DNA of 64,000 bases from Candidatus Omnitrophota bacterium (GCA_017992455.1 JAGOOP010000004.1:24567-88566); one strand, 5' to 3'; positions 33,354-61,977 are shown, counted from the stretch's first letter. Numbers and translations: made by a program. Notes: a model not told the origin generated them from the letters alone.

Positions 33354-33845
33354 TTATTTCTTATACCCTACATACCAGATACCGATGATCGCGCCCGAAG
33401 AATCCTTGATGGGCTCATACCCGGTCTCATATTTCTCTCCCAGGATATCCGCCTCGCCATAGAACGCCTCGCCTGCCTTGATCTTCTTGATGGCGGCGCC
33501 GTTGGGGTCCAAAAGCGTTCCGACAGCCCTGTTGCCGTCCTTGATGACATTGGTGGAGATACGCTTGAAATCATTGCCGACTTTGGCAAAGATCGTGGCG
33601 GTGCCGCCGTAATTATCGGCGATCTCATCGACGATGTCGTAATTGCCGTTCATCTCGTCCTCGCCGAACATCAACGTGCCGCTGTCGAGTGCGGGAGCGC
33701 CGAGCGCCAAGGTCTTGTCCTCAAGCGCCTTGATGGCGGTCTTCACTTTTTCCTCAACGCTCTGGGCGTAAAGGAACCCGGCGCCGGCGAAACACGCAAC
33801 GACCAGAACCACCAGTATTGCAACTGCTTTCATGTACCCTTTCAT
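33354..33845 (-). CDS. secreted/anchored stand-alone Cache (Cache_3-Cache_2-like) sensor-domain protein
   Basis: Signal/anchor MKAVAILVVLVVACFAGAG; GGTATIFAKVGNDFKRISTNV...GNRAVGTLLD...YGEADILGEKYETGYEPIKD...GIWYVGY; no transmitter domain. Confidence 0.75.
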   Translation of the reverse strand: MKGYMKAVAILVVLVVACFAGAGFLYAQSVEEKVKTAIKALEDKTLALGAPALDSGTLMFGEDEMNGNYDIVDEIADNYGGTATIFAKVGNDFKRISTNVIKDGNRAVGTLLDPNGAAIKKIKAGEAFYGEADILGEKYETGYEPIKDSSGAIIGIWYVGYKK

Positions 33846-33898
33846 TTCCCGCTCCTTTCGTATAAGTTCAACCGTCGTTCCTTATCCTGACGATCACG

Positions 33899-36049
33899 CT
33901 ATGCTTTTTCTGATCTCTCACCTCCCCGTTGATTTGATGCTGCGGCGGCTTCAGTGGAATCAAGCTTGAATTTGCTGACGATCGACATAAGATCAGCGGA
34001 CAGCCGCGCAAGCTCCTGCGCGGACGCGGACATTTCCTGCATGGAAGCGGTCTGCTCTTCGGTGCTTGAGGTCACTTCCTGCGCGGTCGATGCGGACTCC
34101 CGGGCGATCTTGACGACCTCATTCAGGCTCTTGACCACCTGTTCGACCTCGATGATGATCTGATGGCCGAATGCGACGATCTCAGAAGTTACGCCTGATG
34201 CGCTCTTGGCAGCCTCGGTGATGCCGTTCAGGACCGCAGAGATATTGGTAACCTGCGTTTTTCCTTCCTGCACCTCTTTGGAGCTCACATCGATGGCGTT
34301 GACCGCGTGCGTGGTCTCGGTCTGGATCGAACGGATCAGGCCGCCGATCTTGCGCACTGCCTCGGCAGACCCTTCGGCAAGTTTCCTGACCTCTTCTGCG
34401 ACGACGGCAAACCCGCGTCCTGCCTCGCCTGCGCGCGCCGCTTCGATTGCCGCGTTCAAAGCAAGGAGATTGGTCTGGTCGGCGATAGACGTGATCGTCT
34501 CGGTGATCTCGCCGATCTGCTGGGACATCTGGCCGAGCTTCTGGATGACCTGCGCGGTATCGGTAACGGCGCTTGTCAGCTGCTCGATCTTGGCCACCGC
34601 GACATCAGCGGCTTTTTTGCCCTGCATTGCGGTGTCGCTCGCATCGGTAACGGTCTTATTCGCGGTTTGCGCATTATCGACCATCTGTTTGATGCTCGCC
34701 GATGCCTTTTCCATGGTCTCGAACGTTTCGTCGATGCGCTGGGCCTGGGTCTCCGCGCCCTTGCTCACTTTCGTGATCGCGGTCGAGACTTCCTGGGTGG
34801 TCGCGTTCATCTCCTCGGAAGAAGAGGACATCTCCTGAGCGGAACTCGCCACCTTATTCGCCGACATGCGCACCTGCGTGATTATATTGTTCATGGTCTT
34901 GACGATGTCGTTGAAGGCATTGGCCATCATGCCCAGCTCATCCTTGCTTTTGATCGTAACGCGCTGGGTCAGGTCGCCGTTGGATATCGGCACGCTCGTG
35001 TCGATGAGCGCCTTGACGGGCTTGTTGATCGACGTAACGAGCACGAAGGAAATGAGGAGGCCGAGGAACACGGATATGACAAATCCGATGATCATGACGA
35101 CCGAGGTGCCTGACAGGGAATTGACCGACCTCTTCGAAGCGGCGGAAATATCCTTGATGCTGACCTCGGAGTTCTCCTTGACAAGCGCGAGGATCTGATT
35201 GGACAGATCGTCCAGTTTCTTTGCCTCTGCGTCCTTTTGCTGCCACTTCTGCGCGAATGACGCGTATGCGGCCTTTGTGTTGTCTGAGGCCTTCTGGATA
35301 TCGTCAAGCATCTTGCGCAGCGCCTTATGCCGCACATTGGTTATCTTTTTCAACTCTCCGACGATCTTGTTCACCTGGACGAACAGGACATTCGCATCGG
35401 TTATAACCCTCGGATTGCGGGTCACCTGCGCGCGCATGCCCACTTTATCGAGCTTGAACGCCAGATCGTTGAGATCCTTGACATATTGTATCTTGTTCAG
35501 CCGGTCCTGGAGTTTCTCCGCCTTGACCCCGACGGCGATCTCGCCCGACATTTCTCCGAGCTGGACCTTAAGGAATGCGGCAGCAGCGTCGAGGTAGACC
35601 CTGCCGGCGTCGGTCGCTTTTCCGCGCTCGGTATTAAGGCCGTTGGTGAGCTCCACGATCTGGTTCAACCCGCGCTCGTAATTTTTGAGCATCGCGTTCA
35701 TCTTACCGACAGAATCTTCCAACTGTTTAAGCCCGGAGGATTTCTTCGCCACCGCTTCCGCTTCCCCGAGAAGCTTTTTTGTCTCTTCAAGGTCCTTGCG
35801 GATCGCGGCAAGCGTCTTTTTGTCCCCGCTGACAAGATATGCCTGCGTCAGGATATAGGTATTGGAGACCATGCGCTCTATCTGATTGGAAAGATTGACG
35901 CTCGGCAGGTTCTCGTTCGAGAGGACGCCGGTTATCGTCTTGACGCGGGACAGATTGACGATCGTCAGGGTCCCGACCAGGAGCAATAACCCGAGTATGA
36001 TAACGTATCCGCCGCCTATCTTCCACCCCAGTTTGATGTCTTTTAACAT
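33899..36049 (-). CDS. methyl-accepting chemotaxis protein with long helical periplasmic domain
   Basis: 716 aa; 2 TM, HAMP, signalling hairpin [32 protein letters not shown]. Confidence 0.9.
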
Positions 36050-36088
36050 GCTTCCCCCTTTTGTATTATGCCGTTCTCTCTCATAAAT

Positions 36089-36577
36089 CTACGAAACCGC
36101 TGCCGGCTTCACATGCCGCTCTACCTGCGCGAACTCATCAGGAGTGATGATCATGTTCAGGTCAAGAAAGACCAGGAGCCGGTCCTTGAGCTTGACAATA
36201 CCCCGTATATAATGTTCGGGGACCTCGGTGTTGACGAGCGACGGCACTTCTTCCATACAGCTTGATGAAAGGCGAAGGACCTCGGATACGGAATCCACGA
36301 TCATGCCCACGGTTTTCTTGCCCACTTCGACCACGATGATACGCGTGGTCTGGCCCCGTTCTTTTGATCTGAGGCCGATGCGTTTTGCCAGGTCGATGAC
36401 CGCAAGCACCTGGCCGCGCAGATTGACCGCTCCTTCGATGAAATCCGGAGCCTTGGGAAGATGGGTTATCTGCACAAGGCGGATGATCTCCCTGACCTGG
36501 TTGATATCCATGCCGAATTCCTGATCCCCGACCGTGAAAGCGACAAGCTGGTATTCTTTCGGTTTATCCTCAGCCAC
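36089..36577 (-). CDS. cheW: chemotaxis coupling protein CheW
   Basis: YQLVAFTVGDQEFGMDINQVREI; track start 36604 is TTG; GTG 36577 preferred (AGGAGG 4 nt upstream), ATG 36592 alternative. Confidence 0.85.
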   Translation of the reverse strand: MAEDKPKEYQLVAFTVGDQEFGMDINQVREIIRLVQITHLPKAPDFIEGAVNLRGQVLAVIDLAKRIGLRSKERGQTTRIIVVEVGKKTVGMIVDSVSEVLRLSSSCMEEVPSLVNTEVPEHYIRGIVKLKDRLLVFLDLNMIITPDEFAQVERHVKPAAVS

Positions 36578-36602
36578 GGCTCCTCCTGTCATGACCGTAA
36601 AC

Positions 36603-36644
36603 AAAAAAACGCCTCAAAGCAATGCACCCCATTGCCTTCAGGCG
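36603..36644 (-). terminator. intrinsic terminator/attenuator in the cheW leader
   Basis: 15-bp stem 36610-36624/36630-36644 (one mismatch, one G-U), 5-nt loop, then 7 U (plus-strand A run 36603-36609); sits between promoter 36709-36736 and cheW start. Confidence 0.5.
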
Positions 36645-36736: not shown

Positions 36737-36803
36737 TATATTTTTTTCTATACCCCTTGTTCCGCAATGTGTTGTGACGCCCTTTGATGTGATATGAAAT
36801 TTG

Positions 36804-36831
36804 TTGCCTGCGCATGGATTTTTGTTATAAT
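36804..36831 (+). promoter_or_regulatory. sigma70 promoter for PilZ gene (TTGCCT-16-TGtTATAAT, extended -10)
   Basis: TTGCCT 36804-36809; TATAAT 36826-36831 preceded by TGT. Confidence 0.5.
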
Positions 36832-36859
36832 ATCCCTGAGCACAAACACGGAGGCGTTT

Positions 36860-37147
36860 ATGCAGGAAAGACGCAAAACCGGCAGGTTACCGCGCCAGGA
36901 ACGGACGTTCATCGAGCACGGTGCAGGAAAAAAAGAAACCATCCTTCTTGACATCAGTATCGGCGGCATGCGCGTCCAGCTTGATGAAGCCATGAAAGTC
37001 GGCACTCCGCTGACGCTCAAAGCCAGCATCCTGCCCCACGCAGGCGCCTTCTTTATGGCAGGGACCGTGACCTGGGTCAAAGAAAGCTCTCCCGGCGTTT
37101 ACGAAACCGGCGTCAAATTCAACAAAGTAAGCACCATACCGCTCTAA
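36860..37147 (+). CDS. stand-alone PilZ-domain protein
   Basis: ORF 36794..37147; ATG 36860 after GGAGG; RRKTGR (RRxxxR) and DISIGG (DxSxxG). Confidence 0.8.
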   Translation: MQERRKTGRLPRQERTFIEHGAGKKETILLDISIGGMRVQLDEAMKVGTPLTLKASILPHAGAFFMAGTVTWVKESSPGVYETGVKFNKVSTIPL

Positions 37148-37286: not shown

Positions 37287-39041
37287 CTACGCTTTTTTGC
37301 CTGACGCAGCTGATTTCTCGTCCAGCTTGAATTTGCCGACCATTTCTTTCAGGTCCATGGCCAGGCGCGCGAGCTCCTGCGCAGATGCGGACATCTCTTC
37401 CATCGACGCAGTCTGTTCCTGCGTGCTCGACGACACTTCCTGGACGGTCGAGGCCGATTCCTTCGCGATCGCAGCGACCTCGTTGATCGCCTTGACCACA
37501 CGCTCGACCTCGACGACTAATTGCTGTCCCGATTCCGAGATCGAACTGGTCACGCTCGATGCATCCCGCGCGGTTTTATTGATCTCGGTCAGGACGTCTG
37601 CGATCTTGGCAACCTGCGTCTTGCCTTCCATGACCTCTTTCGAGCTCATTTCGATGGCGCTGACCGCATGGCCCGTCTCGGACTGGATCGAGCGGATCAG
37701 GCCGCCGATCTTGCGCACTGCCTCGGCAGACCCTTCGGCAAGCTTCCTCACCTCTTCTGCAACGACCGCAAACCCGCGTCCTGCCTCGCCTGCGCGCGCC
37801 GCTTCGATTGCCGCGTTCAAGGCAAGGAGGTTGGTCTGGTCGGCAATAGACGTGATCGTTTCGGTGATCTCTCCGATCTGCTGGGACATCTGGCCGAGGT
37901 TCTGGATGACCTTTGCCGTATCCATAACGGTCCCTGCAAGCTTCTCGATCTTGTCAACGGTCAACTGCGCGGTATTGCGGCCTGTTTCGGATACGGAACT
38001 CGTCTGCTCGACTGCCTTGTTGGCGCTTTGAGCGCTTGCGACCATGGTCTTCAGGCTCGCGGCGGTCTTTTCCATGGTCATGAACGTTTCTTCGACGCGC
38101 TCTGCCTGGGTATTCGCGCCTTTTGAAACCTTCTGAACGGCTGTCGAGACTTCCTGCGTGGTCGCGTTCATCTCTTCGGAAGAGGAGGACATTTCCTGCG
38201 CGGAGCTGGCGACCTTATCGGCGCTCGTGCGCACCTGATACACGACATTATGCATTGCGGCGATGATGCTGTTGAACGCCTGGCCGATCCTGCCCAATTC
38301 GTCCTGGGTCTTGATATTGATCTTGGCGGTCAGGTCGCCGGAGGTGACCGGGGCCGTGCCTTTGATAAGGATTCCGACGGGATTGGTGAGCATCCTGCGC
38401 ATCAGGAATGTGACCAGGACGATCATCAGGATCAAGCCGATGACGGAAAATACTATGTTGTTGAACTGTGTCTTGCGCATCGCAGACTCGATAGGAGCCC
38501 AGTCGAGGCAGATCCGCAGGACTCCGAGCCATTCCATCTTGGCGCCGTGGCAGTTATGACAGCTTTTTTCGTTCGGGATGGGCTTGAGGACCGTAAAGAC
38601 CCTGCCTTTGGCGTTGCGGCGCGGCTCAAGGCCTTCGAAATGCGCGCCGTCAAGCGCCGCGTTCAGGTTCTTTTCGATGACGGACTGATCGGCCTTGACG
38701 TCGAGCTTTTTGCCGTTCAACGCTGTATCCGTCGCGCGCTTGACCTCGCCTGAATGCTCGGTCAGCTGCATCTCGACAATGCCCTTGACGTTCTTGAATT
38801 GATCGAACTGCATCTGGATGACGTCCTGATCCCCGGTCATCATGGGATACCTGATGGCGGTCATGACCGTGTCGGCCAGTTCAAGCGCAGCGTTCTTCTC
38901 GCGGTCGAACAATGTATCGTTCTGCGACGCCACGTTCATGAACGTGATGATCGCCAGGCTCAACACCAATCCCGCGCTCAGCCATACGGCAAGCTTGTTC
39001 CCTATGGATTTTTTTACATTGAAGATCTCGATCATATCCAC
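37287..39041 (-). CDS. methyl-accepting chemotaxis protein with periplasmic c-type haem-binding motif (CxxCH)
   Basis: 584 aa; TM1 - ~150-aa periplasmic domain containing [13 protein letters not shown] - TM2 - HAMP - MCP signalling domain. Confidence 0.85.
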
Positions 39042-39062
39042 CCCGCTTTTATCAAGTCCCTG

Positions 39063-39494
39063 TTAGAAATCGGCAGTTCTGTGCGTTTTCATGCAGATAT
39101 GGCACTGAATGCACACGTCCTTGTCCCGGACATACGATTTCATCGCCTGCATAGCGACCCTGTCCCCGGGATTCGAGGCATGTAAGCCTCCTGCCCCGTG
39201 GCACGCTTCACACTGCTTATAACGCAGATGAGGCGTCTCGTCTTCCGAAACATAACCGCCGGGCTCCCCGTATCCGGTCACATGGCATTTCAGGCATTCG
39301 GGATCCTTTGTCTTGCCCCGCATCTTGAGCACCGCCCATGCCTTGGTGAATTTGCGCGCTTCGAAATCCTTATACTGCTGGGGATGGCAGCCTTTGCATT
39401 TTTCCGCGCCGATGAACTGGTTCTCCTGAGCGGACGCCGCAGCGGCAACGGAAATGAAACAAACCGCCAGCACATACATGATCGCCTTTTTCAT
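39063..39494 (-). CDS. periplasmic tetrahaem cytochrome c
   Basis: ORF 39063..39587 trimmed to ATG 39494 (AAGGAGG 6 nt upstream); Sec signal MKKAIMYVLAVCFISVAAAASA; CKGCH, CLKCH, CEACH, CIQCH. Confidence 0.85.
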   Translation of the reverse strand: MKKAIMYVLAVCFISVAAAASAQENQFIGAEKCKGCHPQQYKDFEARKFTKAWAVLKMRGKTKDPECLKCHVTGYGEPGGYVSEDETPHLRYKQCEACHGAGGLHASNPGDRVAMQAMKSYVRDKDVCIQCHICMKTHRTADF

Positions 39495-39555
39495 TGCATA
39501 CCTCCTTGATTGCGCTTTGGGATAATCATCCTTACTGCTTACAATCACTGGACTT

Positions 39556-39583
39556 ATCATAGCGTAATTCCTGCCTCTGTCAA
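39556..39583 (-). promoter_or_regulatory. sigma70 promoter for cytochrome c / haem-MCP operon (TTGACA-16-TATGAT)
   Basis: Reverse strand TTGACA (39583-39578) gaggcaggaattacgc TATGAT (39561-39556). Confidence 0.5.
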
Positions 39584-39599
39584 GCATAAAATGGAACGG

Positions 39600-39767
39600 T
39601 TATTCTTTTTTCCCGCTTTTGCGGTCCTCATCGCTGCCTGACACGTTCTTCTTGAATTCTTTGATGCCCTCGCCCAATGATCGCGCGATCTGGGGTATCT
39701 TTCCCGCCCCGAAGATCAGCAGCACGATCAGCAAAATGATCAATAACTCACCCATTCCGAATCTCAT
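39600..39767 (-). CDS. tatA: twin-arginine translocase subunit TatA (55 aa, below ORF-track cut-off)
   Basis: Own translation: MRFGMGELLIILLIVLLIFGAGKIPQIARSLGEGIKEFKKNVSGSDEDRKSGKKE; AGGAGG 7 nt upstream of ATG 39767. Confidence 0.8.
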   Translation of the reverse strand: MRFGMGELLIILLIVLLIFGAGKIPQIARSLGEGIKEFKKNVSGSDEDRKSGKKE

Positions 39768-40500
39768 GAACCTTCCTCCTCTCGATGAAACGCGCGACCA
39801 TGATCCCTGTTTCGAACAATACCAGAAGCGGCAACGCCATCAGGATCTGCGAAAAAACATCGGGCCCGGGCGTGAGCGCCGCCGCGGCGATGAATATAAA
39901 AACGATGATGAACCTTCTCTGCCTGCGCAGCGTCTCAGACCTGAGGATCCCTGCCTTTGCCAGAAATCCGATGGCAAGCGGCAGTTCGAAGATGCATCCG
40001 AACGCGAACACCATGGCGAACACGAACGACAGATACCGCGAAATGCTGATCATCGGCACCAGCACATCGGAGCCGTATGCAAGGAGAAACCCGACCCCGA
40101 CGGGCAATATCAAAAAATAGCAGAACGACGCGCCTGTTGCAAAGAGCAGGACGGAGATGACGGTGATACGGCCCGCCATGTGTTTTTCTCCGGGCATAAG
40201 CCCGCGCTCGATAAAACTCCAGAACTGAAAAAGAACGAACGGCATACTGACGAACAACCCGAGAAAAAAAGCGAGTTTGAACCGTGTCCAGAACGCCTCG
40301 ACCGGCCCGGTGAAAATGAACGTTCCGACGGGCCTGGCAAGGTCCCGGATAACGATGTCAACCGCCGGATATACCGCAAACCCGCAGGCAGCCACCGCGA
40401 GCAAGGAATAGATAAGCCGTTTTTTCAGCTCCTCGAGATGCACAAGAAGCGGGATCGGCTCATCAAACCGGCCGGTCTTTTGTTTCGTCTTTATATCCAA
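39748..40500 (-). CDS. tatC: twin-arginine translocase subunit TatC
   Basis: 250 aa, six hydrophobic segments, LVHLEELKKRLIYSLL N-terminal motif. Confidence 0.85.
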   Translation of the reverse strand: MDIKTKQKTGRFDEPIPLLVHLEELKKRLIYSLLAVAACGFAVYPAVDIVIRDLARPVGTFIFTGPVEAFWTRFKLAFFLGLFVSMPFVLFQFWSFIERGLMPGEKHMAGRITVISVLLFATGASFCYFLILPVGVGFLLAYGSDVLVPMISISRYLSFVFAMVFAFGCIFELPLAIGFLAKAGILRSETLRRQRRFIIVFIFIAAAALTPGPDVFSQILMALPLLVLFETGIMVARFIERRKVHEIRNG

Positions 40501-40696
40501 GCTTTCTTTCGACTTCTTCCTTTATATCTACCGGCGGCTCCTGCTCGAGCGCCTCTTTCAGGTCCATGGTCGCGCGCTTGAACGACGCCATTGCTTTGCC
40601 CAGCTGACGGCCGAGGTCAGGCAGGCGTTTGGGCCCGACGACCAGCAGGGCGACGACAAACACCAGAAGGAGCTCGGGCATGCCGACGTTGAACAC
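40463..40696 (-). CDS. tatB: twin-arginine translocase TatB-like (TatA/B family) subunit
   Basis: MFNVGMPELLLVFVVALLVVGPKRLPDLGRQLGK; GTG start 1 nt after hypA-like stop. Confidence 0.75.
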   Translation of the reverse strand: MFNVGMPELLLVFVVALLVVGPKRLPDLGRQLGKAMASFKRATMDLKEALEQEPPVDIKEEVERKLGYKDETKDRPV

Positions 40697-40697
40697 G

Positions 40698-40934
40698 TCA
40701 GTTCTCCACTTCCAGTTCTATGACGCGCGACTCAAGATCATCCCCCTGGACGACGTCGAGCCGCGAATCCTCGGCGAGCGTGCCTTTGGCGACCATCTCG
40801 AACGCATGGGTCAATGATTCGGGCGTCGTATGGCCGTCATTGCCCAGCTCTACCTTGATCGACCGGACCCGCTTGCCGCCGGCCTTTTGAAGGCACAGGC
40901 TCAACACTTCTTTGGCCACTCCGACCTCATGCAT
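40698..40934 (-). CDS. hypA: HypA-like nickel metallochaperone lacking the zinc-finger domain (78 aa)
   Basis: ORF 40698..41030 trimmed to ATG 40934 (GGAGGAAA RBS); MHE nickel-site N-terminus; no CxxC...CxxC block. Confidence 0.6.
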   Translation of the reverse strand: MHEVGVAKEVLSLCLQKAGGKRVRSIKVELGNDGHTTPESLTHAFEMVAKGTLAEDSRLDVVQGDDLESRVIELEVEN

Positions 40935-41373
40935 GCTGTATTTCCTCCAGTACGAGCTGTCCGAGCCTCGGCAGGGCTGCCCGGACCTCGTCGGTAAGTT
41001 CCATGCCCCAATCGACGGTCTTCGGTTCAACGCCGAAAACAGTGACCTGCGGCATGGCGCCGGTAAGCTTGACGATATTAAAAATATCCTTCAGGCACAC
41101 ATCGTGCAGCGATGTCTGAGGGAATGCCTCGACCTCGAAATCCTCGGGGGCGAATTTATAGATATCCCCGGGAACGCCGTCCGCCTGCACCGCGTCGACG
41201 ATAACAACCCGGTCGGAACCCTCGATAAAACTCAGCAGGTCAAACCCGCCCGTTGCTCCGTCGACCAGCTCCACGTCTGCGGGAAGTTTTTCCTTTTGCA
41301 AATAGCGTATCAGATGGACCCCGATACCCTCATCCCGGAACAACAGGTTGCCGCAGCCGATGATCCGCTTCAC
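40927..41373 (-). CDS. [NiFe] hydrogenase maturation endopeptidase (HyaD/HybD family)
   Basis: IIGCGNLLFRDEGIGV, VIVDAV, SLHD motifs; GTG 41373 two nt after large-subunit stop. Confidence 0.8.
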   Translation of the reverse strand: MKRIIGCGNLLFRDEGIGVHLIRYLQKEKLPADVELVDGATGGFDLLSFIEGSDRVVIVDAVQADGVPGDIYKFAPEDFEVEAFPQTSLHDVCLKDIFNIVKLTGAMPQVTVFGVEPKTVDWGMELTDEVRAALPRLGQLVLEEIQHA

Positions 41374-41375
41374 CG

Positions 41376-42791
41376 TTATACGACGCGGAATTTCTTCATC
41401 TCGCCGCTCGGCTTGATCAGATGCACCGCGCAGGCGATACAAGGGTCGAACGACCTGACGATCCTGACCACCTCAAGCGGATTATCCGTATCGACGATGG
41501 ACGTGCCGACAAGCGCCTCTTCGACCGGACCGCGCGCGCCTTTGTCATCGCGGGGAGCGCAGTTCCATGTCGTGGGCACCACTGCCTGATAATTATCGAT
41601 CTTCTTATTGGCGATCTTGATCCAGTGGCCTAAAGCGCCGCGTGCGCCTTCGGTCAATCCCATGCCTTCGCCTGAATCCGGGACCTTCGTTTCCGCGCAG
41701 GCAGGCTGCCCGGGTTTCAATTGCAACACCCATTCCTCCAGGGCATCGGCGAGTTTCTTCGCCTCGAGCGCGCGCGCAGCATGGCGGTCGATGACGGATA
41801 TGCCCTGGCGGTAATCGCCGTTGACCCACATGCGGGCAAGAGGACCGACTTCATACGGCTGGTTATCATACCGGGGAGCCTTGAGCCACGAATAACCGCC
41901 GGATTTCTCCGCTTCGGGATCAGTCACGCCGTCCGAGGGCTTCTTGCCTGAACTCGAGTTCTTGTAATAAGAGTATTTGACGTCTTCGGTTATCTTGTTG
42001 GCGTCAAAATCAAGCACCCGGTCCTTGGAAAAACGGCCTGCCTTGAACAACTTGCTCTTTCCGGCCGTATCGAGCGGGAACGCGCCGTAGGAAAGCAGAT
42101 TGCCGTATCCGCGGCCGATCTGCTTGTAATCGGAATAGATATCCGCGACGCCGAGCACATCGGGGATGTACACGTCGTTGACGAACGCCTTGATCTCGCG
42201 CAAGCGCCACAGGAACGACGCGATCTTGTCAACCGAAGGCGTGCATGTCACTCCGCCGACGACCATTGCCGTCTGCGGAGGCATTTTTCCGCCCCATATC
42301 GCCAGCATCTCGTGACACTTCTTGCGCATCTCAAGCGCCTGGAGATAATGCGCAACATAGGTGTCGTTGACCTTTGGCGGAAGCCGGAAATCGCCCGAAT
42401 ACCGCGGCACGAACGGCGGGATCGCCGGCCCGTTGACATAATCGAGCGCTGCAAGATGGTAGAAATGCAGGATATGCGACTGCAGATGGTTGGCGCCGAG
42501 CATCAAGTTCCTGATGATCCTTCCGTTGTCGGGAACCGTGACCTTGAACGCGTCGTCAAGGCACATGATGGACGCGGTGCCGTGCGCCATGGGGCAGACC
42601 CCGCAGATGCGCTGCGTGATCTGACCTGCGTCGCGGGGATCGCGCCCCTTCAAGATGACCTCGATGCCGCGCCAGAGCGTTCCCGAACTGTATGCGTCGG
42701 TGACCTTGCCGTCATTGACCTCGACGGTGACCTTTAAATGCCCTTCGATCCTTGTTACCGGATCTATCGATATTTTCTGCGTAGCCATCAA
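41376..42791 (-). CDS. [NiFe] hydrogenase large subunit
   Basis: RIEGH, RICGVCPMAHG, C-terminal DPCIACAVH followed by a 14-aa tail; 471 aa. Confidence 0.9.
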   Translation of the reverse strand: MMATQKISIDPVTRIEGHLKVTVEVNDGKVTDAYSSGTLWRGIEVILKGRDPRDAGQITQRICGVCPMAHGTASIMCLDDAFKVTVPDNGRIIRNLMLGANHLQSHILHFYHLAALDYVNGPAIPPFVPRYSGDFRLPPKVNDTYVAHYLQALEMRKKCHEMLAIWGGKMPPQTAMVVGGVTCTPSVDKIASFLWRLREIKAFVNDVYIPDVLGVADIYSDYKQIGRGYGNLLSYGAFPLDTAGKSKLFKAGRFSKDRVLDFDANKITEDVKYSYYKNSSSGKKPSDGVTDPEAEKSGGYSWLKAPRYDNQPYEVGPLARMWVNGDYRQGISVIDRHAARALEAKKLADALEEWVLQLKPGQPACAETKVPDSGEGMGLTEGARGALGHWIKIANKKIDNYQAVVPTTWNCAPRDDKGARGPVEEALVGTSIVDTDNPLEVVRIVRSFDPCIACAVHLIKPSGEMKKFRVV

Positions 42792-42818: not shown

Positions 42819-43766
42819 TTATACGATCTCGCTGTCTGCCTTAGGCCACTGGTCCTTTGGCAATGCCGCATAGAACGGCGCTTTTCCGTCCGGGAAATCC
42901 TCGCTGCAGCAGCCGATACAGATGGAGCCGGCTCCGATACACCAGTTCACGCCGTTATTCCATTTGCGCAGCGGGCAATCTGAACTTGCCATCGGGCCTT
43001 TGCAGCCGAGATTGATCAAGCAGCCGGGATCGCCGAATTTCTTGGCGAATTTGCCTTCGCTGAAATACGAGAAGTTGGGGCAGTTTTGATGGACGGTCTC
43101 TCCGAAGAACAGTTTCGGACGGCCGAGCTTATCCAGTTCAGGGAGCCCGAACAACAACACGTGCACGACCGTTCCCAGGATCCAGTCAGGGTGCGGAGGG
43201 CATCCCATGATATTGATGATCGGCACGCCTGAGACGACCTGTGAGACCGGCTTGCATTCAGTCGGGTTCGGTTTGCCGGCTGGGATGCCGCCGAAAGACG
43301 CGCAATCTCCGACTGCAAGGATCGCTTTGGCCTTCGGGCCGATATCCTTGACCAGGTCCAGCATGGTCACTTCTTTGCCGTCTTTCTCGCCGAGCGTGCA
43401 ATACACGCCGTGATCTTTTGTCGGGACAGCGCCTTCCACAACAAGGAAGAATTCGCCTTTGGCTTTTTCCGCGATCGTATCGAGGTATGAGAATGCGAGT
43501 TCTCCCGACGCTGCCATGACGTTCGAATGATATTCAAGGCTGATGATCTTGGTGAGGACATCGGCGATCTTCGGATGCGCGGTGTTCAACAGCGATACGC
43601 TGCAGCCGGAGCAGCTTGCGCCCTGCAGCCAGATGACCGGCGGCCTCTTTGCCGCAGCTTCTTCCAATGCAGAAACGAGTTTCGGCACAGCCATCTGGGA
43701 AAGACCCATTCCCATTGCAGACGCGCTGCACAACTGCAAGAATTCACGCCTCGTAAGTTCCATCAT
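42819..43766 (-). CDS. [NiFe] hydrogenase small subunit, Tat-exported
   Basis: Twin-arginine signal LTRREFLQL; GASCSGCSVS proximal cluster motif; second ATG (43763) may be the start. Confidence 0.9.
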   Translation of the reverse strand: MMELTRREFLQLCSASAMGMGLSQMAVPKLVSALEEAAAKRPPVIWLQGASCSGCSVSLLNTAHPKIADVLTKIISLEYHSNVMAASGELAFSYLDTIAEKAKGEFFLVVEGAVPTKDHGVYCTLGEKDGKEVTMLDLVKDIGPKAKAILAVGDCASFGGIPAGKPNPTECKPVSQVVSGVPIINIMGCPPHPDWILGTVVHVLLFGLPELDKLGRPKLFFGETVHQNCPNFSYFSEGKFAKKFGDPGCLINLGCKGPMASSDCPLRKWNNGVNWCIGAGSICIGCCSEDFPDGKAPFYAALPKDQWPKADSEIV

Positions 43767-44050: not shown

Positions 44051-46342
44051 ATGCGATCGGCGTTCAAGATAGATATAGAGGGAGTTGTCCAGGGCGTCGG
44101 ATTCAGGCCGTTCGTGCACCGGCTTGCCAAGCGCCTGGGCATCGACGGATATGTGCTCAACACCTCGCAGGGCGTTTCCATCCACGCCGAAACTGACCGG
44201 CCGAAGATGAACGCATTCCTCAAAGCGCTTCAGGCGGAAGTGCCGCCGCTGGCGCGCATAACCGGAACGCGCGCCCGGGCCGCGGCCGCCGAGGGCATCA
44301 GCGGATTTTCCATCAGGGACAGCAGAAAAACCGCGGGGCATGCGGCGCTTGTTTCTGCCGATATCGGCACCTGCGTTGACTGCCTTGCCGAAATGAACAG
44401 CGATACCGACCGCAGATACCGGTATCCATTCATCAACTGCACGAACTGCGGCCCCCGTTTTTCCATCATACAGAACATGCCCTACGACCGTCCGGCCACC
44501 ACCATGAAGGCGTTCAACATGTGCATGGACTGCGCCACCGAATACAGCGATATGGATTCCCGGCGCTACCATGCCCAGCCCAACGCCTGCCCTATTTGCG
44601 GGCCGCAGGTATCGCTCGTGTGCGCAGGGCGCACGATCGCGGCCGGAGAAGATGCGATAACGGAGACCATTCGCCGGATCCGCGCAGGCTCGATCGTGGC
44701 GATAAAAGGCGTGGGCGGCTTCCACATCGCCTGCGATGCCCGCAACGGCATGGCGGTACAGCGGCTGCGCAGCCTCAAAAAAAGGCCGTCAAAGCCGTTC
44801 GCGGTCATGGTAGCGGATACAAAAAAAGCGCAGGCATTCGCCGAGGTGCCGCAAACGGAACAGGAACTGCTCAACAGCCCCGAGCGGCCGGTCGTGCTCC
44901 TGAAGAAAAAGGACAAAAACGGACTGTGCCCCGAATTAAGCCCGGACAATAATTATCTCGGGATCATGATCTGCTATACTCCGCTGCATTACCTGTTATT
45001 CGACCGCAACCTCTCCGACGGCAAGCCGCTCGACTGTATCGTCATGACAAGCGGCAATGTCGCGGACGAGCCGCTTGAGATCGACAACGATCAGGCGATG
45101 AGGAACCTGTCGGGGATCTGCGATCATTTCCTGGTCCACAACCGCGCGATCCATAACCGTGTCGACGATTCGATCGTCCAGGTGATGGACGGGAAGCCCG
45201 TCATGCTGCGGCGCAGCCGCGGATATGCGCCGTTCCCGTTCTTTGCGCAAAGGACCATGAAGCCGACACTTGCCTGCGGCGCCGAACTGAAAAACACGTT
45301 CTGCCTTGCTGATGGTCCGCGTTTTGTGCTCAGCCAGTATATCGGCGACCTTAAAACATACGCGACCTATCAGTTCTACCGAGAGGCGGTCGCGCGGCTC
45401 GAAAAACTTTTTAGCGTCAAACCCGCGATCGTGGCCCATGACCTTCATCCCGACTATCTTTCCACGCATTATGCCGCGGCATTGCGGGCCAAAAAGAAAA
45501 AACTCGCCCTCATCCCCGTACAGCATCACCGGGCGCACTGCGCCAGCGTCATCGCCGAACATGCGATCAAAGGAAAGATCATCGGCGTCTGTTTTGACGG
45601 GACCGGCTGCGGCGAAGACAACAGGATCTGGGGCGGAGAGTTCTTTCACGGAACGTTGTCGAACCTCAAGCGCGCCGGCCGCTTCGAATACGTGGCCATG
45701 CCCGGCGGGGATAAAGCGACGCAGGAGCCCTTCCGCATGGCCATCAGCTACCTTTATCAGGCGTTCGGCGAGGACATATACCGGCTCAACATAGGATTCA
45801 TAAACAAATACCAGAATTCACTCGCGGATTTCATCACGCTCGCAAAGCTCAAACCGGTCCTGACCTCAAGCGCAGGCAGATTGTTCGACGCGGTGAGCGC
45901 GATCCTGGGCATCTGCGACCGCATCACGTATGAAGCGCAGGCAGCGATCAGGCTGCAGATGTTCGCCGAACGTTCGCGGACGACAAAGGCCTACCGCTTC
46001 GGCATTTTTGAAGAAGAGAATATGCTGATCGTTGACAGCGGCCCGATGCTCGAACAGCTCGTCAAAGACCTCCGGGCGTATGTATCCCGGGAGGATATCG
46101 CGCGCAAATTCCATAACGGACTGGCAGGCCTTATCGCGCGCATGTGCGGGGCCATTCGCGCCAGGACAAAAACGGATACTGTCTGCCTGTGCGGAGGAGT
46201 GTTCCAGAACAAGCTTCTTCTCGAAACAACCGCGGGGCATTTACGCAAAAACAGATTCATTGTGTATTACAACGAAGTGCTGCCCTCGAATGACGGAGCG
46301 GTCTCGCTCGGCCAGGCGGCGCTTGCCAATGCAAAAAATTAA
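44051..46342 (+). CDS. hypF: carbamoyltransferase HypF
   Basis: Acylphosphatase start VQGVGFRPFV, two CxxC-x18-CxxC zinc fingers (CVDC...CTNC; CMDC...CPIC), YrdC and Kae1-like domains. Confidence 0.9.
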   Translation: MRSAFKIDIEGVVQGVGFRPFVHRLAKRLGIDGYVLNTSQGVSIHAETDRPKMNAFLKALQAEVPPLARITGTRARAAAAEGISGFSIRDSRKTAGHAALVSADIGTCVDCLAEMNSDTDRRYRYPFINCTNCGPRFSIIQNMPYDRPATTMKAFNMCMDCATEYSDMDSRRYHAQPNACPICGPQVSLVCAGRTIAAGEDAITETIRRIRAGSIVAIKGVGGFHIACDARNGMAVQRLRSLKKRPSKPFAVMVADTKKAQAFAEVPQTEQELLNSPERPVVLLKKKDKNGLCPELSPDNNYLGIMICYTPLHYLLFDRNLSDGKPLDCIVMTSGNVADEPLEIDNDQAMRNLSGICDHFLVHNRAIHNRVDDSIVQVMDGKPVMLRRSRGYAPFPFFAQRTMKPTLACGAELKNTFCLADGPRFVLSQYIGDLKTYATYQFYREAVARLEKLFSVKPAIVAHDLHPDYLSTHYAAALRAKKKKLALIPVQHHRAHCASVIAEHAIKGKIIGVCFDGTGCGEDNRIWGGEFFHGTLSNLKRAGRFEYVAMPGGDKATQEPFRMAISYLYQAFGEDIYRLNIGFINKYQNSLADFITLAKLKPVLTSSAGRLFDAVSAILGICDRITYEAQAAIRLQMFAERSRTTKAYRFGIFEEENMLIVDSGPMLEQLVKDLRAYVSREDIARKFHNGLAGLIARMCGAIRARTKTDTVCLCGGVFQNKLLLETTAGHLRKNRFIVYYNEVLPSNDGAVSLGQAALANAKN

Positions 46343-46347
46343 ACACT

Positions 46348-46566
46348 ATGTGCCTTGCCATACCGGTTAGAATCATCAAGCTCGACGGCACGCATGCCGA
46401 AGTGGATGCCAACGGCGTCAGGCGCGACGCGGACGTGCGGTTCGTGGACGATGTGAAAGCCGGCGACTATATCCTGCTCCACGCGGGGTTCGCCATCGAG
46501 AAGATAGACGAACAACAGGCGCGTGAAACGCTCGAATTGCTCAAAAACATCTATTACGACCAATGA
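46348..46566 (+). CDS. hypC: hydrogenase assembly chaperone HypC
   Basis: MCLAIP N-terminus, 72 aa. Confidence 0.9.
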   Translation: MCLAIPVRIIKLDGTHAEVDANGVRRDADVRFVDDVKAGDYILLHAGFAIEKIDEQQARETLELLKNIYYDQ

Positions 46567-47648
46567 AATATATCGACGAGTTCCGCGACAAAGAGATCGT
46601 CAAAGGGCTGATCTCGGCCATCAATGCGTCCGCCCGCGCAAAGATCAACCTCATGGAAGTCTGCGGCACGCACACCATGGCGATCTTCCGGTCGGGGATC
46701 AAGCAGATCCTGCCCTCCTCGATCGATCTCATCTCAGGCCCGGGCTGCCCGGTGTGCGTGACGTCGCAATCGGATATCGACCGGATGCTGTCGCTGGCGC
46801 GCAATAAGGATATCGTCATCACGACGTTCGGCGACATGCTCAAGGTCCCGGGGACAAAAGGGTCGCTTGAAAAAGAGAACGCAGGCGGCGCGGACATCAG
46901 GATCGTGTACAGCCCGCTCGATGCCCTTGCGATCGCAGGGCGCGAACCCCGGAAGGAAGTCGTGTTCCTTGCGGTCGGGTTCGAGACCACGGCGCCGGTC
47001 ATCGCTTCGGTCGTCAGCGATGCGGCGCAAAAAAAGATCGGGAATTTCTCGATCTACTCCTGCCACAAGACCATACCGCCGGCGATGAAAGCCCTGCTCG
47101 AAGCGCAGGAGCTTCAGATCGACGGGTTCCTGTGCCCGGGCCATGTGACATCGATCATCGGATCGCGCGCATATGACTTTATCGCAGCCGATTACGGCAT
47201 CCCCTGCGTGGTAAGCGGGTTCGAACCGACGGATATACTCGAGACCGTGCTGATGCTCATCCGGCAGAAAGAAAAGAACCGGGCCTGTGTCGAGGTCCAG
47301 TACGCGCGCGCGGTCCGGCGGCAAGGCAATGTAAAAGCGCAGGAAATGATGGACAGGGTTTTCGAGCCGGCTGACGCTGACTGGCGCGGACTGGGCAGCA
47401 TACTGCAGAGCGGCCTGCGGCTGCGCACAGCATATCGTTCGTTCGACGCGGCTGTCAAATTCCGGATACCCGCTTTCAAAACAACCGAACCCCGGGGATG
47501 TATGTGCGGGGAGGTCCTGCGGGGCGCCAAAACGCCGCAGCAGTGCAGGTTATTCGCAAAGGCCTGCACGCCGGAAAACCCGTTCGGTCCGTGCATGGTA
47601 TCGTCCGAAGGGACCTGCGCGGCGTGGTTCAAATATAACAGGGGTTAA
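46563..47648 (+). CDS. hypD: hydrogenase formation protein HypD
   Basis: MEVCGTHT, GPGCPVCV, FEPT motifs. Confidence 0.9.
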   Translation: MKYIDEFRDKEIVKGLISAINASARAKINLMEVCGTHTMAIFRSGIKQILPSSIDLISGPGCPVCVTSQSDIDRMLSLARNKDIVITTFGDMLKVPGTKGSLEKENAGGADIRIVYSPLDALAIAGREPRKEVVFLAVGFETTAPVIASVVSDAAQKKIGNFSIYSCHKTIPPAMKALLEAQELQIDGFLCPGHVTSIIGSRAYDFIAADYGIPCVVSGFEPTDILETVLMLIRQKEKNRACVEVQYARAVRRQGNVKAQEMMDRVFEPADADWRGLGSILQSGLRLRTAYRSFDAAVKFRIPAFKTTEPRGCMCGEVLRGAKTPQQCRLFAKACTPENPFGPCMVSSEGTCAAWFKYNRG

Positions 47649-47651
47649 AAC

Positions 47652-48668
47652 ATGGACGAAAAAATATTATTAGCGCACGGTTCAGGCGGAAAGCTGACGC
47701 ACCGGCTCTTAAGCGAGATCGTGTTCCCCGCGTTCTCCAATCCGATATTGAAAAAATGCGAGGACGCAGCTGTGGTGCCGATGGAGGGCAGATGCGCGTT
47801 CACGACCGATTCATTCGTCATCCAGCCGGTATTCTTTCCCGGCGGCGACATCGGGAAGCTTGCGGTCTGCGGCACGGTCAATGACCTTGCGGTCATGGGC
47901 GCCCGCCCCCGATACCTCACCGCCGCCTGTATCATAGAAGAAGGGCTGGAGATCTCCGTCCTGCGAACGGTCGTCGCGTCCATGGCTCAGGCGGCAAAAA
48001 AAGCGGGCGTTCAGATCGTCGGCGGGGACCTGAAGGTCGTTGAAAAAGGCGCCTGCGATAAGATATTCATCAATACGACAGGCATCGGGCTCATCTTGAA
48101 AACCTGCCGCATCTCCGCAAATAATGCCCGGCCCGGAGACTGCGTCATCATCAACGGCACGATCGGCGATCACGGCGCCGCGGTCATGTCAGCGCGCAAA
48201 GATTATAAGCTGCGCAGTTCCATCCGCAGCGACTGCGCCTGCCTCAACGGCCTTATTGAACGCGTACTCCGTGCCGCGCCGGGTGTTCATGTCATGCGCG
48301 ATCCGACGCGCGGCGGCGTGGCGACCACGCTCAAGGAGATCGCGCTCCAGTCGAATGTGGAGATACTGATCGAAGAAGACGCCCTGCCGGTAAACGGCCC
48401 GGTGCGCGGCTTATGCGAAATACTCGGCATCGATCCGCTCTATATGGCCAACGAAGGCAAGGTGCTCGTATTCGCCCCGGCCAAAGACGCTCAAAAGATC
48501 ATAGCCGCCATGCGAAAACATCCGCTCGGAAAACGCGCAGCCGTCATCGGCCGCGTAACAAGCCAGCCTGCCCGTTCGGACACCCCGCATGTGCTCCTCC
48601 ACACCTCCATCGGCTCCACCCGCATCATCGACATGCTCTCCGGCGGCCAGCTCCCCCGCATCTGCTAA
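47652..48668 (+). CDS. hypE: carbamoyl dehydratase HypE
   Basis: AIR-synthase-like fold, C-terminal PRIC. Confidence 0.9.
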   Translation: MDEKILLAHGSGGKLTHRLLSEIVFPAFSNPILKKCEDAAVVPMEGRCAFTTDSFVIQPVFFPGGDIGKLAVCGTVNDLAVMGARPRYLTAACIIEEGLEISVLRTVVASMAQAAKKAGVQIVGGDLKVVEKGACDKIFINTTGIGLILKTCRISANNARPGDCVIINGTIGDHGAAVMSARKDYKLRSSIRSDCACLNGLIERVLRAAPGVHVMRDPTRGGVATTLKEIALQSNVEILIEEDALPVNGPVRGLCEILGIDPLYMANEGKVLVFAPAKDAQKIIAAMRKHPLGKRAAVIGRVTSQPARSDTPHVLLHTSIGSTRIIDMLSGGQLPRIC

Positions 48669-58513: not shown

Positions 58514-59305
58514 CTACGAATAGCTGTGGAGACCGGGGAGGATGAAGTTGACGCCGATGAAGGTGAAGAGCGTTGCGAGGAAGCCGAGGATGCACAGCCA
58601 GGAGGCTTTGGCATCCCGCCAGCCGCGCAGGATGCGCATATGCAGATATACGACGTACACGAGCCAGGTGATCAGCGAACAGGTTTCTTTCGGGTCCCAG
58701 CCCCAGTACGTTCCCCAGGCCGCATCCGCCCAGGCAGACCCGGTCGTCATGCCGATGGTCAAGAACGGGAACCCGAATATGATGAGCCGGTACATGAGCG
58801 TATCGAGAAGCCGCAGCGGATCCGCCCCTGCGCTGCGCCGCATGTTCGATACGATATACAGGATGCCGAGCACGAACGCAAGGCTTATTGCGCCGTAGCC
58901 GATAAAATAGGTGATGACATGCACCGCCATCCATTTGCTCTGTAATGCGGGCACGAGCGGCTTCAGAGCGCTTGAGCCGAAGAACGCTCCGAAGAGCAGG
59001 CATAACGCAAGCATCAACGAAGGGATGAACAGGACTGCGGCGCGATACATGCGGTCGAATATGAAATACACCGCGATGATCGCCCACGAGAACAGGATAA
59101 GCGATTCGTACATGCTGGCGAACGGCGGCCGGCCTGCCGCATGCCAGCGCGCGAGGATCAGTCCGGAATGGAACAAAAACCCGATACGCATGCACCACAG
59201 CGCGAGCTTCTGTCCCGCCCCCTGCTTCCGCGCCGGCGCAATGCCGGTAAAGACAGCGGCTGCGATATACGAGATAAAACAGGCTTTTAAGAGATGATCA
59301 GTCAT
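58514..59305 (-). CDS. ccsA: cytochrome c biogenesis (system II) haem-handling protein CcsA/ResC
   Basis: Trp-rich WGTYWGWDPKE motif; ORF 58514..59329, ATG 59305 preferred. Confidence 0.85.
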   Translation of the reverse strand: MTDHLLKACFISYIAAAVFTGIAPARKQGAGQKLALWCMRIGFLFHSGLILARWHAAGRPPFASMYESLILFSWAIIAVYFIFDRMYRAAVLFIPSLMLALCLLFGAFFGSSALKPLVPALQSKWMAVHVITYFIGYGAISLAFVLGILYIVSNMRRSAGADPLRLLDTLMYRLIIFGFPFLTIGMTTGSAWADAAWGTYWGWDPKETCSLITWLVYVVYLHMRILRGWRDAKASWLCILGFLATLFTFIGVNFILPGLHSYS

Positions 59306-60320: not shown

Positions 60321-60326
60321 AAAATA

Positions 60327-61619: not shown

Positions 61620-61977
61620 TCGGATCCGTTTTCTTCGCTTTCCCGTGGACATAATAGATCAGCCGCAGGCGGTTCTTAAGCTCCAGATTCTCGAAGCGCA
61701 TGCCGGTTTCATATATGAGCTTTCCGTCTTTGTCCCTGCCCGGATGCGTCTTCTGCCAGGCGACCCGCCCCCTGCACGTGAACGGCTTTTCATTATCCGG
61801 CAAATACACGAGCAGATCGATCACCGTATCATCGCTCAGCCTGCGGTCGAAACCCACGCAAAAACCGCCTGCAGAAACGTCGACGGAATACGCGCTGCCC
61901 TCGATCATCTCTTCCTTTATTTTATAGATGATCCGCAGCCTGCCGAAGACCCTTTTATATTTTCTTCGTTCTTCCAT
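61597..61977 (-). CDS. stand-alone PilZ-domain protein inside the haem operon
   Basis: ORF 61597..62106 trimmed to ATG 61977 (TGATG overlap with ahbAB stop); RRKYKR (RRxxxR), DVSAGG (DxSxxG). Confidence 0.8.
   Translation of the reverse strand: MEERRKYKRVFGRLRIIYKIKEEMIEGSAYSVDVSAGGFCVGFDRRLSDDTVIDLLVYLPDNEKPFTCRGRVAWQKTHPGRDKDGKLIYETGMRFENLELKNRLRLIYYVHGKAKKTDPNEKKSAR

Follow-up and report, generated by a model that had tools for sequence, protein, structure and literature searches.

A c554-like tetrahaem cytochrome and a haem-c-type chemoreceptor form a conserved gene pair linked to a [NiFe] hydrogenase cluster in Candidatus Omnitrophota

Introduction

What does a chemoreceptor with a predicted periplasmic haem respond to, and why should the gene next to it encode a multihaem cytochrome? 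The question is raised by a 64,000-nucleotide stretch of DNA from a Candidatus Omnitrophota bacterium (GCA_017992455.1 JAGOOP010000004.1:24567-88566; the whole stretch is referred to below as the window), in which the minus strand carries, between positions 39583 and 37287, the gene of a small tetrahaem cytochrome c followed by that of a methyl-accepting chemotaxis protein (MCP) with a single periplasmic CxxCH motif, both next to genes for a [NiFe] hydrogenase. Which physiological signal periplasmic haem-c Cache/PAS sensors read is a matter of debate, with Geobacter work arguing for redox potential and work of 2026 for nitric oxide (NO). A sensor gene that has a dedicated tetrahaem cytochrome gene next to it, in different phyla and with different outputs, provides a concrete test case for this debate. 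Here we report that the cytochrome-receptor pair is a real and conserved sensory module that occurs in several bacterial phyla, and we weigh what it may sense.

Results

A c554-like cytochrome precedes the receptor gene

A sequence-only reading of this DNA had described a promoter leading to a 143-residue exported cytochrome with four CxxCH sites, all of which are present where that reading had placed them. The open reading frame (ORF) of the cytochrome (39494..39063, minus strand, 143 aa) has an AGGAGG ribosome-binding site in front of it, and its product carries the Sec-type signal peptide MKKAIMYVLAVCFISVAAAASA, with cleavage before QE, and CxxCH motifs beginning at residues 33, 67, 95 and 128. 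It passes the threshold of the Pfam family Cytochrome_C554 (PF13435) with 63.2 bits (threshold 20.8), and its best sequence match in the Protein Data Bank (PDB) is Nitrosomonas europaea cytochrome c554 (1bvb, E 6.7e-8, 28% identity). The AlphaFold2 (AF2) model (pLDDT 87.5) gave c554 again (1ft6) as its top and only meaningful Foldseek match, with a modest TM-score of 0.53. All four CxxCH motifs as well as His105 are invariant or nearly so across 84 homologues. The protein is a c554-like cytochrome that is exported by the Sec route to the periplasm. It has four haems, predicted here from the CxxCH sites, in common with N. europaea c554 (1BVB, 1FT6) but is a far smaller protein (mature length about 120 residues, against 211), and it stands in the setting of a hydrogenase and a chemoreceptor, whereas c554 serves in hydroxylamine oxidation. 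A class III cytochrome c3 identity was considered and rejected, as PF02085 scored 16.7 bits against a cut-off of 22.9 and no c3 structure appeared among the Foldseek matches.

The receptor carries a divergent sCache_heme sensor

The MCP ORF (39041..37287, minus strand) comprises 584 aa counted from a GTG at 39041, 21 nt past the cytochrome stop codon, and to this extent agrees with the sequence-only reading. However, the closest relatives of the MCP (P0002 and P0001) start with MIEIF or MLEIF, which favours the ATG at 39035; the true start is therefore probably this ATG, giving a protein of 582 aa and a gap of 27 nt after the cytochrome gene.

The receptor consists of a first transmembrane helix (TM1, aa 17-35, 38937..38993, hydropathy peak centred at about aa 26), a periplasmic sCache_heme sensor (aa 36-195, 38457..38936, recognized by Pfam, PDB phmmer, AF2 and Foldseek), a second transmembrane helix (TM2, aa 196-214, 38400..38456, hydropathy peak centred at about aa 205), a HAMP domain (aa 213-261, 38259..38405, PF00672 with 32.8 bits against a threshold of 25) and an MCP signalling domain (aa 361-525, 37467..37961, PF00015 with 137.2 bits against 34.6), all encoded on the minus strand. 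The segments ahead of TM1 and behind TM2 have net charges of +1 and +3, respectively. As the sensor domain of about 160 residues is flanked by two transmembrane helices, it is predicted to be periplasmic, and the cytoplasmic location that the sequence-only reading had named as the outcome speaking against it was not found. The sole CxxCH of the receptor, CHNCH at aa 161-165 (38547..38561, minus strand), lies about 30 residues ahead of TM2, shortly before that helix as had been described.

Kinship with the Geobacter sensors GSU0582 and GSU0935, which the sequence-only reading had named, was borne out by three approaches. Phmmer searches of the PDB gave GSU0935 (3b42, E 1.4e-3) and GSU0582 (3b47) as the best matches, with alignments spanning the CxxCH region and an 'MMxGD' motif; the Pfam family PF21563 scored 25.9 bits, and homologues reach up to 41.9 bits with the same profile (L037); and the structural model led to the same proteins. 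This model, of MCP aa 36-199 (pLDDT 96, pTM 0.89), has a single Cache/PAS-like fold in which a long N-terminal helix is combined with a sheet of five strands, and the CxxCH sits in a short helix (model residues 124-130) flanked by two strands, before the last strand. Its top Foldseek match was the sCache domain of WalK (5is1, E 7.6e-7, TM-scores 0.64 and 0.72), followed by 3b42 (E 1.8e-6) and 3b47 (E 4.6e-6), which had the highest identity among the matches (21-22%). The high root-mean-square deviation of the model from 3b42 and 3b47 is probably an effect of their domain-swapped dimers. The Tll0287-like family PF11845 remained below threshold (21.0 bits against 24.1). A Cys/His haem ligation of the Tll0287 type was rejected as well, the sole extra Cys nearby being that of RICLDW, for which relatives have RIALDW or RIVLDW.

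A word-index protein search with the sensor returned 7 matches only, and an exhaustive profile search was needed to reveal the family: a profile built from the MCP sensor and six relatives retrieved 954 representatives at E<=1e-3. Loss of the CxxCH from orthologues had been named beforehand as a result that would count against a haem sensor; the motif proved to be aligned in 118 of 125 family representatives (C161 in 125/125, C164 in 119/125 and H165 in 124/125). Met67 of the receptor, whose codon lies at 38841..38843 (minus strand) within an invariant motif, is the predicted distal haem ligand; it corresponds to Met60 of GSU0935 in the phmmer alignment (chain residue 26, index offset 34), and the position is occupied by M in 114 of the 125 representatives and by L in the other 11. 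A rough, motif-based count divided the same 125 proteins into about 41 MCPs, 42 histidine kinases, 30 other long and 12 short proteins. On the evidence of sequence and model, the receptor is a divergent member of the known sCache_heme family (GSU0582/GSU0935, DUF3365/Tll0287, PF21563), and its sensor domain should bind one covalent haem c. The family as a whole has been described as comprising about 20,000 sequences with a WalK-like fold and a CXXCH that is about 99% conserved (bioRxiv 2026, PMC12889525). Thus, the sequence-only reading was right in naming the Geobacter proteins as kin, but such receptors, which it took to be known from a few anaerobes, belong to a large family.

The pair has its own transcription signals and ends a larger cluster

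A sigma-70-like promoter (TTGACA-16 nt-TATGAT, 39583-39556, minus strand, 11 of 12 consensus matches) is sited between tatA and the cytochrome gene, 17 nt past the tatA stop codon. On the other side, the cytochrome-MCP unit is closed by an intrinsic terminator, a hairpin followed by a U-run (37281-37225, minus strand, dG -34.1 kcal/mol, z = -10.1), which had escaped a pattern scan and was detected by folding analysis, where none of 200 shuffles folded equally well. No terminator-like site was found in the interval between tatA and the cytochrome gene, and transcription may therefore also read through from the upstream hydrogenase and tat genes into the pair. The two-gene operon proposed earlier is supported by this promoter-like site and terminator, but the description was incomplete, since the cytochrome and MCP genes are also the tail of a larger conserved cluster composed of hydrogenase, maturation and tat genes, cytochrome and MCP. 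In a greedy ORF map of the 64-kb window, the two genes were the only CxxCH-bearing ORFs, which, like the conservation of the receptor motif across its family, speaks against a chance occurrence.

The pair is retained through six gene orders

The nearest relatives of the window are metagenome-assembled genomes (MAGs) of Candidatus Omnitrophota. When the sensor alignment was scanned against one genome per species, 18 loci were obtained, eight of which encode orthologous MCPs; one of these (L017) ends at a contig end and is included on an inferred output domain. The contigs of L004 and L005 begin at the MCP start, so that the upstream region could not be assessed, and in all six MCP loci with upstream sequence a tetrahaem cytochrome gene lies immediately upstream, with two copies in L006. 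Three further look-ups starting from the sensor (P0147, P0155 and P0160, corresponding to L026, L027 and L113) had the cytochrome gene within two genes of the MCP in each case, bringing the assessable sensor-first MCP loci with a cytochrome no more than two genes away to nine of nine (L001, L002, L003, L006, L007, L017, L026, L027 and L113). P0190, a CHHCH-type MCP, was not counted because its contigs were too short upstream. Look-ups starting from the cytochrome gave the same picture. By contrast, none of the nine loci with non-MCP sensor paralogues (eight in Omnitrophota genomes, and L018 in a Deltaproteobacteria MAG) had a cytochrome beside the sensor.

Some of the paralogues are stand-alone sCache_heme proteins of about 250 aa (P0003-P0007, P0129 and P0130; for instance L008 920-1687) with two transmembrane helices, no output domain and a shared, conserved cytoplasmic N-terminus, MKDEKLV..GLKxILKGxGEE. 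On the contigs of P0003 and P0007 the gene is found near pfk and fba (and ilvD in P0007), with no cytochrome neighbour.

Six gene orders were distinguished around the pair. In the window and in L001, L003, L019 and L022 the genes follow each other as small subunit-large subunit-HycI-HypA-TatB-TatC-TatA-cytochrome-MCP; L006 has TatA-CheW-cytochrome-cytochrome-MCP at its end; and L023 has TatC-TatA-small subunit-large subunit-HycI-MCP-cytochrome-cytochrome. The fourth order, small subunit-large subunit-HycI-cytochrome-outer-membrane barrel-MCP followed by chemotaxis genes, occurs in L024 and L026, the fifth, HypA-MCP-CheW-cytochrome-HypFCDE, in L027 and L028, and the sixth, HemL-ResB-CcsA-TatB-TatC-TatA-MCP-cytochrome, in L113. 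The chemotaxis genes of the fourth order form the run CheW-CheY-CheC-CheD-CheB-CheA right after the hydrogenase-cytochrome-MCP genes of L026, and CheW-CheW-CheY-CheC-CheD-CheB, up to the end of the locus, in L024. Hydrogenase structural genes are present in nine distinct loci, the window included. Retention of the pair through six gene orders argues for a functional link rather than for inherited gene order. What had been called a distinct arrangement is strengthened by these data, in that the pair is conserved and its linkage to the hydrogenase outlives several rearrangements.

The gene between cytochrome and haem-MCP in L024 (6743-8038) and L026 (5583-6827) encodes an outer-membrane beta-barrel with weak matches to Alginate_exp and MtrB_PioB, and its insertion hints at a porin-cytochrome link to the cell surface.

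The pair beyond Omnitrophota and beyond chemotaxis

In a Deltaproteobacteria MAG (L029, L030), a cytochrome 40% identical to that of the window is encoded, according to gene calls, 87 nt upstream of a PF21563-type MCP with CFHCH, and no hydrogenase was seen within 6 kb of this pair. A scan of metagenomes made with the cytochrome alignment added loci in which the cytochrome gene is directly upstream of, or overlaps, an sCache_heme sensor gene (L035, L036, L037 and L039). Three of these sensors (L035, L037 and L039) are complete histidine kinases, while the sequence of the L036 sensor breaks off behind a PAS domain, where the contig ends; no hydrogenase was seen in the cytochrome-kinase loci. 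MCP-type sensors accompany the cytochrome in L031-L034 and are truncated by contig ends in L031-L033. Pairing of cytochrome and receptor thus depends neither on a hydrogenase nor on the type of output domain. L041, L042 and L044 were left uncounted because their sCache_3 kinases, about 900 nt downstream of the cytochrome gene, have no CxxCH.

Further features of these loci were recorded. The cytochrome-kinase pairs of L035 (657-9957), L037 (4025-11739) and L039 (201-4059) are followed by relays of hybrid response regulators and kinases, and in L035 and L037 Mrp/Nuo-like antiporter subunits (Proton_antipo_M, Oxidored_q2) precede the pair, a further link to energy metabolism. In L012 (3287-5580, minus strand), from a spirochaete MAG, the haem-MCP gene is preceded by a decayed cytochrome whose first motif reads CQYYH and which stops after the second haem site, with a stand-alone or truncated sensor gene lying divergent from it.

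The hydrogenase cluster and other neighbours in the window

The presence of a hydrogenase next to the pair, stated earlier from sequence, was confirmed by Pfam and a PDB search. In the order of transcription, all on the minus strand and recognized by Pfam, the genes upstream of the pair encode the [NiFe] hydrogenase small subunit (42819-43766, Tat motif RREFLQ), the large subunit (41376-42791, C-terminal DPCIACAVH), a HycI-type hydrogenase maturation protease (ORF 40927-41442), a short HypA of 78 aa (40698-40934), a TatA/B-family protein (40463-40696), TatC (39748-40500) and TatA (39600-39767). The large subunit is nearest to periplasmic [NiFeSe] hydrogenases (PDB 5jsu, E 3.6e-152), and its DPCIACAVH, with Cys at the selenocysteine position, marks it as a Cys variant of the [NiFeSe] lineage. 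HypA matches just positions 1-65 of the 112-position Pfam profile, homologues in L019-L022 are equal in size, and the protein apparently does without the C-terminal zinc domain. The position of the tat genes, between hypA and the cytochrome gene, is kept in L001, L003 and L019-L022, and in L006 the TatA/B-family gene occurs twice, with about 2 kb between the copies. No gene for a cytochrome b subunit was found in the window cluster or in L019-L026, and among the products of the hydrogenase clusters only the tetrahaem cytochrome is a candidate for the electron acceptor. With its two subunits, its Tat signal and no b-type anchor, the enzyme matches the periplasmic uptake hydrogenases of the Desulfovibrio [NiFe]/[NiFeSe] type.

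Divergent to the hydrogenase operon runs a hypFCDE block (44051..48668, plus strand), in which hypF (44051-46342) was recognized by its similarity to Pfam-annotated HypF proteins of related loci and is followed by hypC (46348-46566), and in which hypD and hypE (ORFs 46563-47648 and 47652-48668) were assigned by analogy with L027. The system II cytochrome c maturation genes that had been reported for the window were verified by Pfam as ResB (59298-60320, minus strand) and CcsA (Cytochrom_C_asm; 58514-59329, minus strand). They belong to a hemL-resB-ccsA block (58514-61652) about 19 kb from the pair, in which hemL is named by position and ORF size only; in L113 (525-6216), hemL, resB and ccsA directly adjoin the tat, haem-MCP and cytochrome genes.

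A PilZ-domain gene recognized by Pfam (36794-37147, plus strand) is convergent with the MCP gene. It is kept beside the MCP in L002-L005, L007 and L019-L022 with 39-61% identity, which suggests that its product may be a partner of the cytochrome-MCP module that binds cyclic di-GMP. Further on (33354-36604, minus strand) lie cheW, the gene of a second MCP (716 aa) and that of a stand-alone sCache_3 protein of 163 aa. Over the HAMP and signalling part, the second MCP shares 64% identity with the haem-MCP, but its sensor is a different one, with weak 4HB/HBM-like matches; both MCPs of the window probably feed the same chemotaxis pathway.

Discussion

How could a hydrogenase, a cytochrome and a receptor work together? 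We tentatively favour, at a little under an even chance, a relay in which electrons from the hydrogenase reduce the cytochrome, the redox state of the receptor haem is in turn set by the cytochrome, and this state governs energy or H2 taxis. The hydrogenase would oxidize H2 and pass the electrons to the tetrahaem cytochrome, which would exchange electrons with the haem of the receptor; reduction would turn this haem from a high-spin His/water to a low-spin His/Met67 form; the long N-terminal helix, which has Met67 at its end and extends from TM1 without a break, would be shifted by the switch of ligands; and the signal would run via TM2 and HAMP to CheA, so that swimming would follow the supply of H2-derived electrons or the redox poise of the periplasm. 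Both electron-transfer steps, the attachment of the haem, the ligand switch and the behavioural output are inferred. In sulfate reducers, periplasmic hydrogenases without a b-type subunit donate electrons to soluble multihaem cytochromes, and transfer from hydrogenase to cytochrome is likewise proposed here from the conserved adjacency of the genes and by analogy with the Desulfovibrio hydrogenase/c3 system. For the receptor haem the model is that of GSU0582 and GSU0935, in which the haem is high-spin when oxidized and low-spin when reduced, with Met60 as sixth ligand, and in which the midpoint potentials are -156 and -251 mV (PMC8396549). A multihaem cytochrome reduced by a hydrogenase could, on the same analogy, reach potentials of this kind.

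Several points weigh against such a relay. Synteny cannot show electron transfer, and the module is known here from genes and models. The score of the receptor's sensor domain with PF21563 (Mcp40H-20_sensor) falls slightly short of the gathering cut-off of 27 bits. L113 and L029 have no hydrogenase nearby, so that H2 need not be the universal input, and no onward electron acceptor of the cytochrome was identified in the 64-kb window. About 28 of 38 more distant small tetrahaem homologues in the metagenome loci showed no sensor match at all, nor did cytochrome fusion proteins of 400-600 aa in these loci, and the cytochrome family as a whole is accordingly not dedicated to signalling. Together with P0116, a distant homologue that stands in a multihaem cluster with neither sensor nor hydrogenase, these sensor-free homologues indicate that the sensor linkage is specific to one cytochrome clade. 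Moreover, sCache_heme domains fused to signalling domains have been argued to behave as NO sensors (PMC12889525). The full proposal, of a three-protein H2-sensing chemotaxis relay whose cytochrome and sCache_heme domain make up a portable redox input module for chemotaxis and kinase outputs alike, appears rather doubtful at present.

The argument for NO leads to the explanation that competes best, although we consider it unlikely, namely that the receptor is a sensor of NO, CO or O2 in which the gas takes the place of the distal Met on the ferrous haem, with the cytochrome as reductant or scavenger and with the hydrogenase link reflecting negative taxis, away from compounds that inhibit the enzyme. 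O2, CO and NO all act as inhibitors of [NiFe] hydrogenases; a ferrous haem in the periplasm requires a reductant, which would explain the dedicated cytochrome partner; and the conserved Met67 and CxxCH fit a gas sensor and a redox sensor equally well. Biochemically, signalling-fused sCache_heme domains bind NO tightly and form no stable O2 complex (PMC12889525), and GSU0582 and GSU0935 bind CO and NO reversibly with displacement of Met60 (PMC8396549). However, a tetrahaem carrier kept adjacent to the sensor across output types and phyla exceeds the obvious need of a gas sensor, the partners of the NO-sensing CHH receptors known to date are Ser/Thr kinases and not cytochromes (10.64898/2026.05.25.727664), and no NO-metabolism genes were seen in any cluster examined. 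A gas sensor of this type, too, requires electron transfer between cytochrome and sensor.

It is decidedly improbable that cytochrome and receptor do not interact at all, the former being the acceptor of the hydrogenase and the latter, with a haem that senses something else, its neighbour through co-regulation or shared needs of export and maturation. The cytochrome gene does follow the hydrogenase, maturation and tat genes, as expected for a redox partner, both in the window and in close relatives, and related genomes often keep a gene order with no direct function between the proteins. Nevertheless, mere co-location is unlikely because cytochrome-sensor pairs exist away from any nearby hydrogenase (L029/L030 and L113, and with kinases L035, L037 and L039); the pair also outlasts at least six rearrangements, and the non-MCP sCache_heme paralogues in the Omnitrophota genomes of the sample never occur with the cytochrome. 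Least probable of all is that the cytochrome is a redox 'antenna' of the receptor alone, coupling it to a different electron donor or acceptor in the periplasm or outside the cell, with the hydrogenase adjacent only through co-expression under reducing conditions: the hydrogenase-free pairs of the Deltaproteobacteria MAG and the kinase loci would suit it, as would the outer-membrane barrel of L024/L026 with its hint of a cell-surface link, but no other hydrogenase acceptor is encoded in any cluster, the cluster is kept in several gene orders, and the soluble multihaem cytochromes used by hydrogenases of sulfate reducers that lack a b-type subunit provide a ready precedent to the contrary.

Among known systems, the H2-linked relay comes closest at its sensory end to GSU0582 and GSU0935 (3B47, 3B42), which have the same succession of TM1, single-CxxCH PAS/Cache-like domain, TM2, HAMP and MCP domain and whose distal ligand Met60 aligns with the conserved Met of the receptor. 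Sequence similarity is low, however, and in contrast to the Geobacter proteins the receptor described here is always next to a c554-like cytochrome in the assessable loci and, in Omnitrophota, also linked to a hydrogenase; no such cytochrome linkage was found in the literature on the Geobacter proteins and the sCache_heme family, nor was anything found there on the neighbours of GSU0582, GSU0935 and GSU0303. DcrA of Desulfovibrio vulgaris is another chemoreceptor whose periplasmic part carries a c-type haem, and it has been proposed to sense redox potential or oxygen (PMC8396549). By this description it resembles the present receptor, whose haem is predicted, and differs from it by an added cytoplasmic PAS domain (PMC8396549), which Pfam did not detect in our protein.

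At the other end of the relay, the Desulfovibrio [NiFe] and [NiFeSe] hydrogenases with their cytochrome c3 are likewise two-subunit, Tat-exported enzymes with no b-type subunit and a small soluble tetrahaem cytochrome. Here, though, the cytochrome is not a c3, Cys replaces selenocysteine in DPCxxCxxH, and a chemoreceptor joins the cluster. The idea that the redox state of electron transport steers behaviour is shared with energy taxis through Aer and TlpD and with the cytochrome-dependent 'congregation' of Shewanella (PMC2886117, PMC5789149); their receptors use cytoplasmic FAD-PAS (flavin adenine dinucleotide-binding PAS) or other domains, whereas in the present case a covalent haem is predicted in the periplasm and a cytochrome is encoded alongside.

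Two papers on Omnitrophota genomics (PMC10066038, PMC8542988) make no mention of chemotaxis or of the hydrogenase-cytochrome-MCP cluster, and nothing relevant was found in the literature on H2 taxis tied to a hydrogenase and a chemoreceptor. Nor was a description of the cytochrome-sensor pair or of its linkage to the hydrogenase cluster found in the literature on Geobacter sensors, sCache_heme, Omnitrophota, or hydrogenases, chemotaxis and haem sensors, a search from which subscription journals were mostly absent. Receptor, cytochrome and hydrogenase each come from known families, and what appears to be new is the conserved linkage of cytochrome and sensor together with its tie to the hydrogenase.

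If the relay from hydrogenase via cytochrome to receptor holds true, it would amount to a simple protein chain that turns H2 into a cellular output, and the cytochrome and sensor would stand as a redox-input module that bacterial signalling systems can reuse. It would also be the first molecularly defined bacterial H2-taxis pathway, and would account for the way in which Omnitrophota and similar uncultivated anaerobes locate sources of H2, for example syntrophic partners or hosts.

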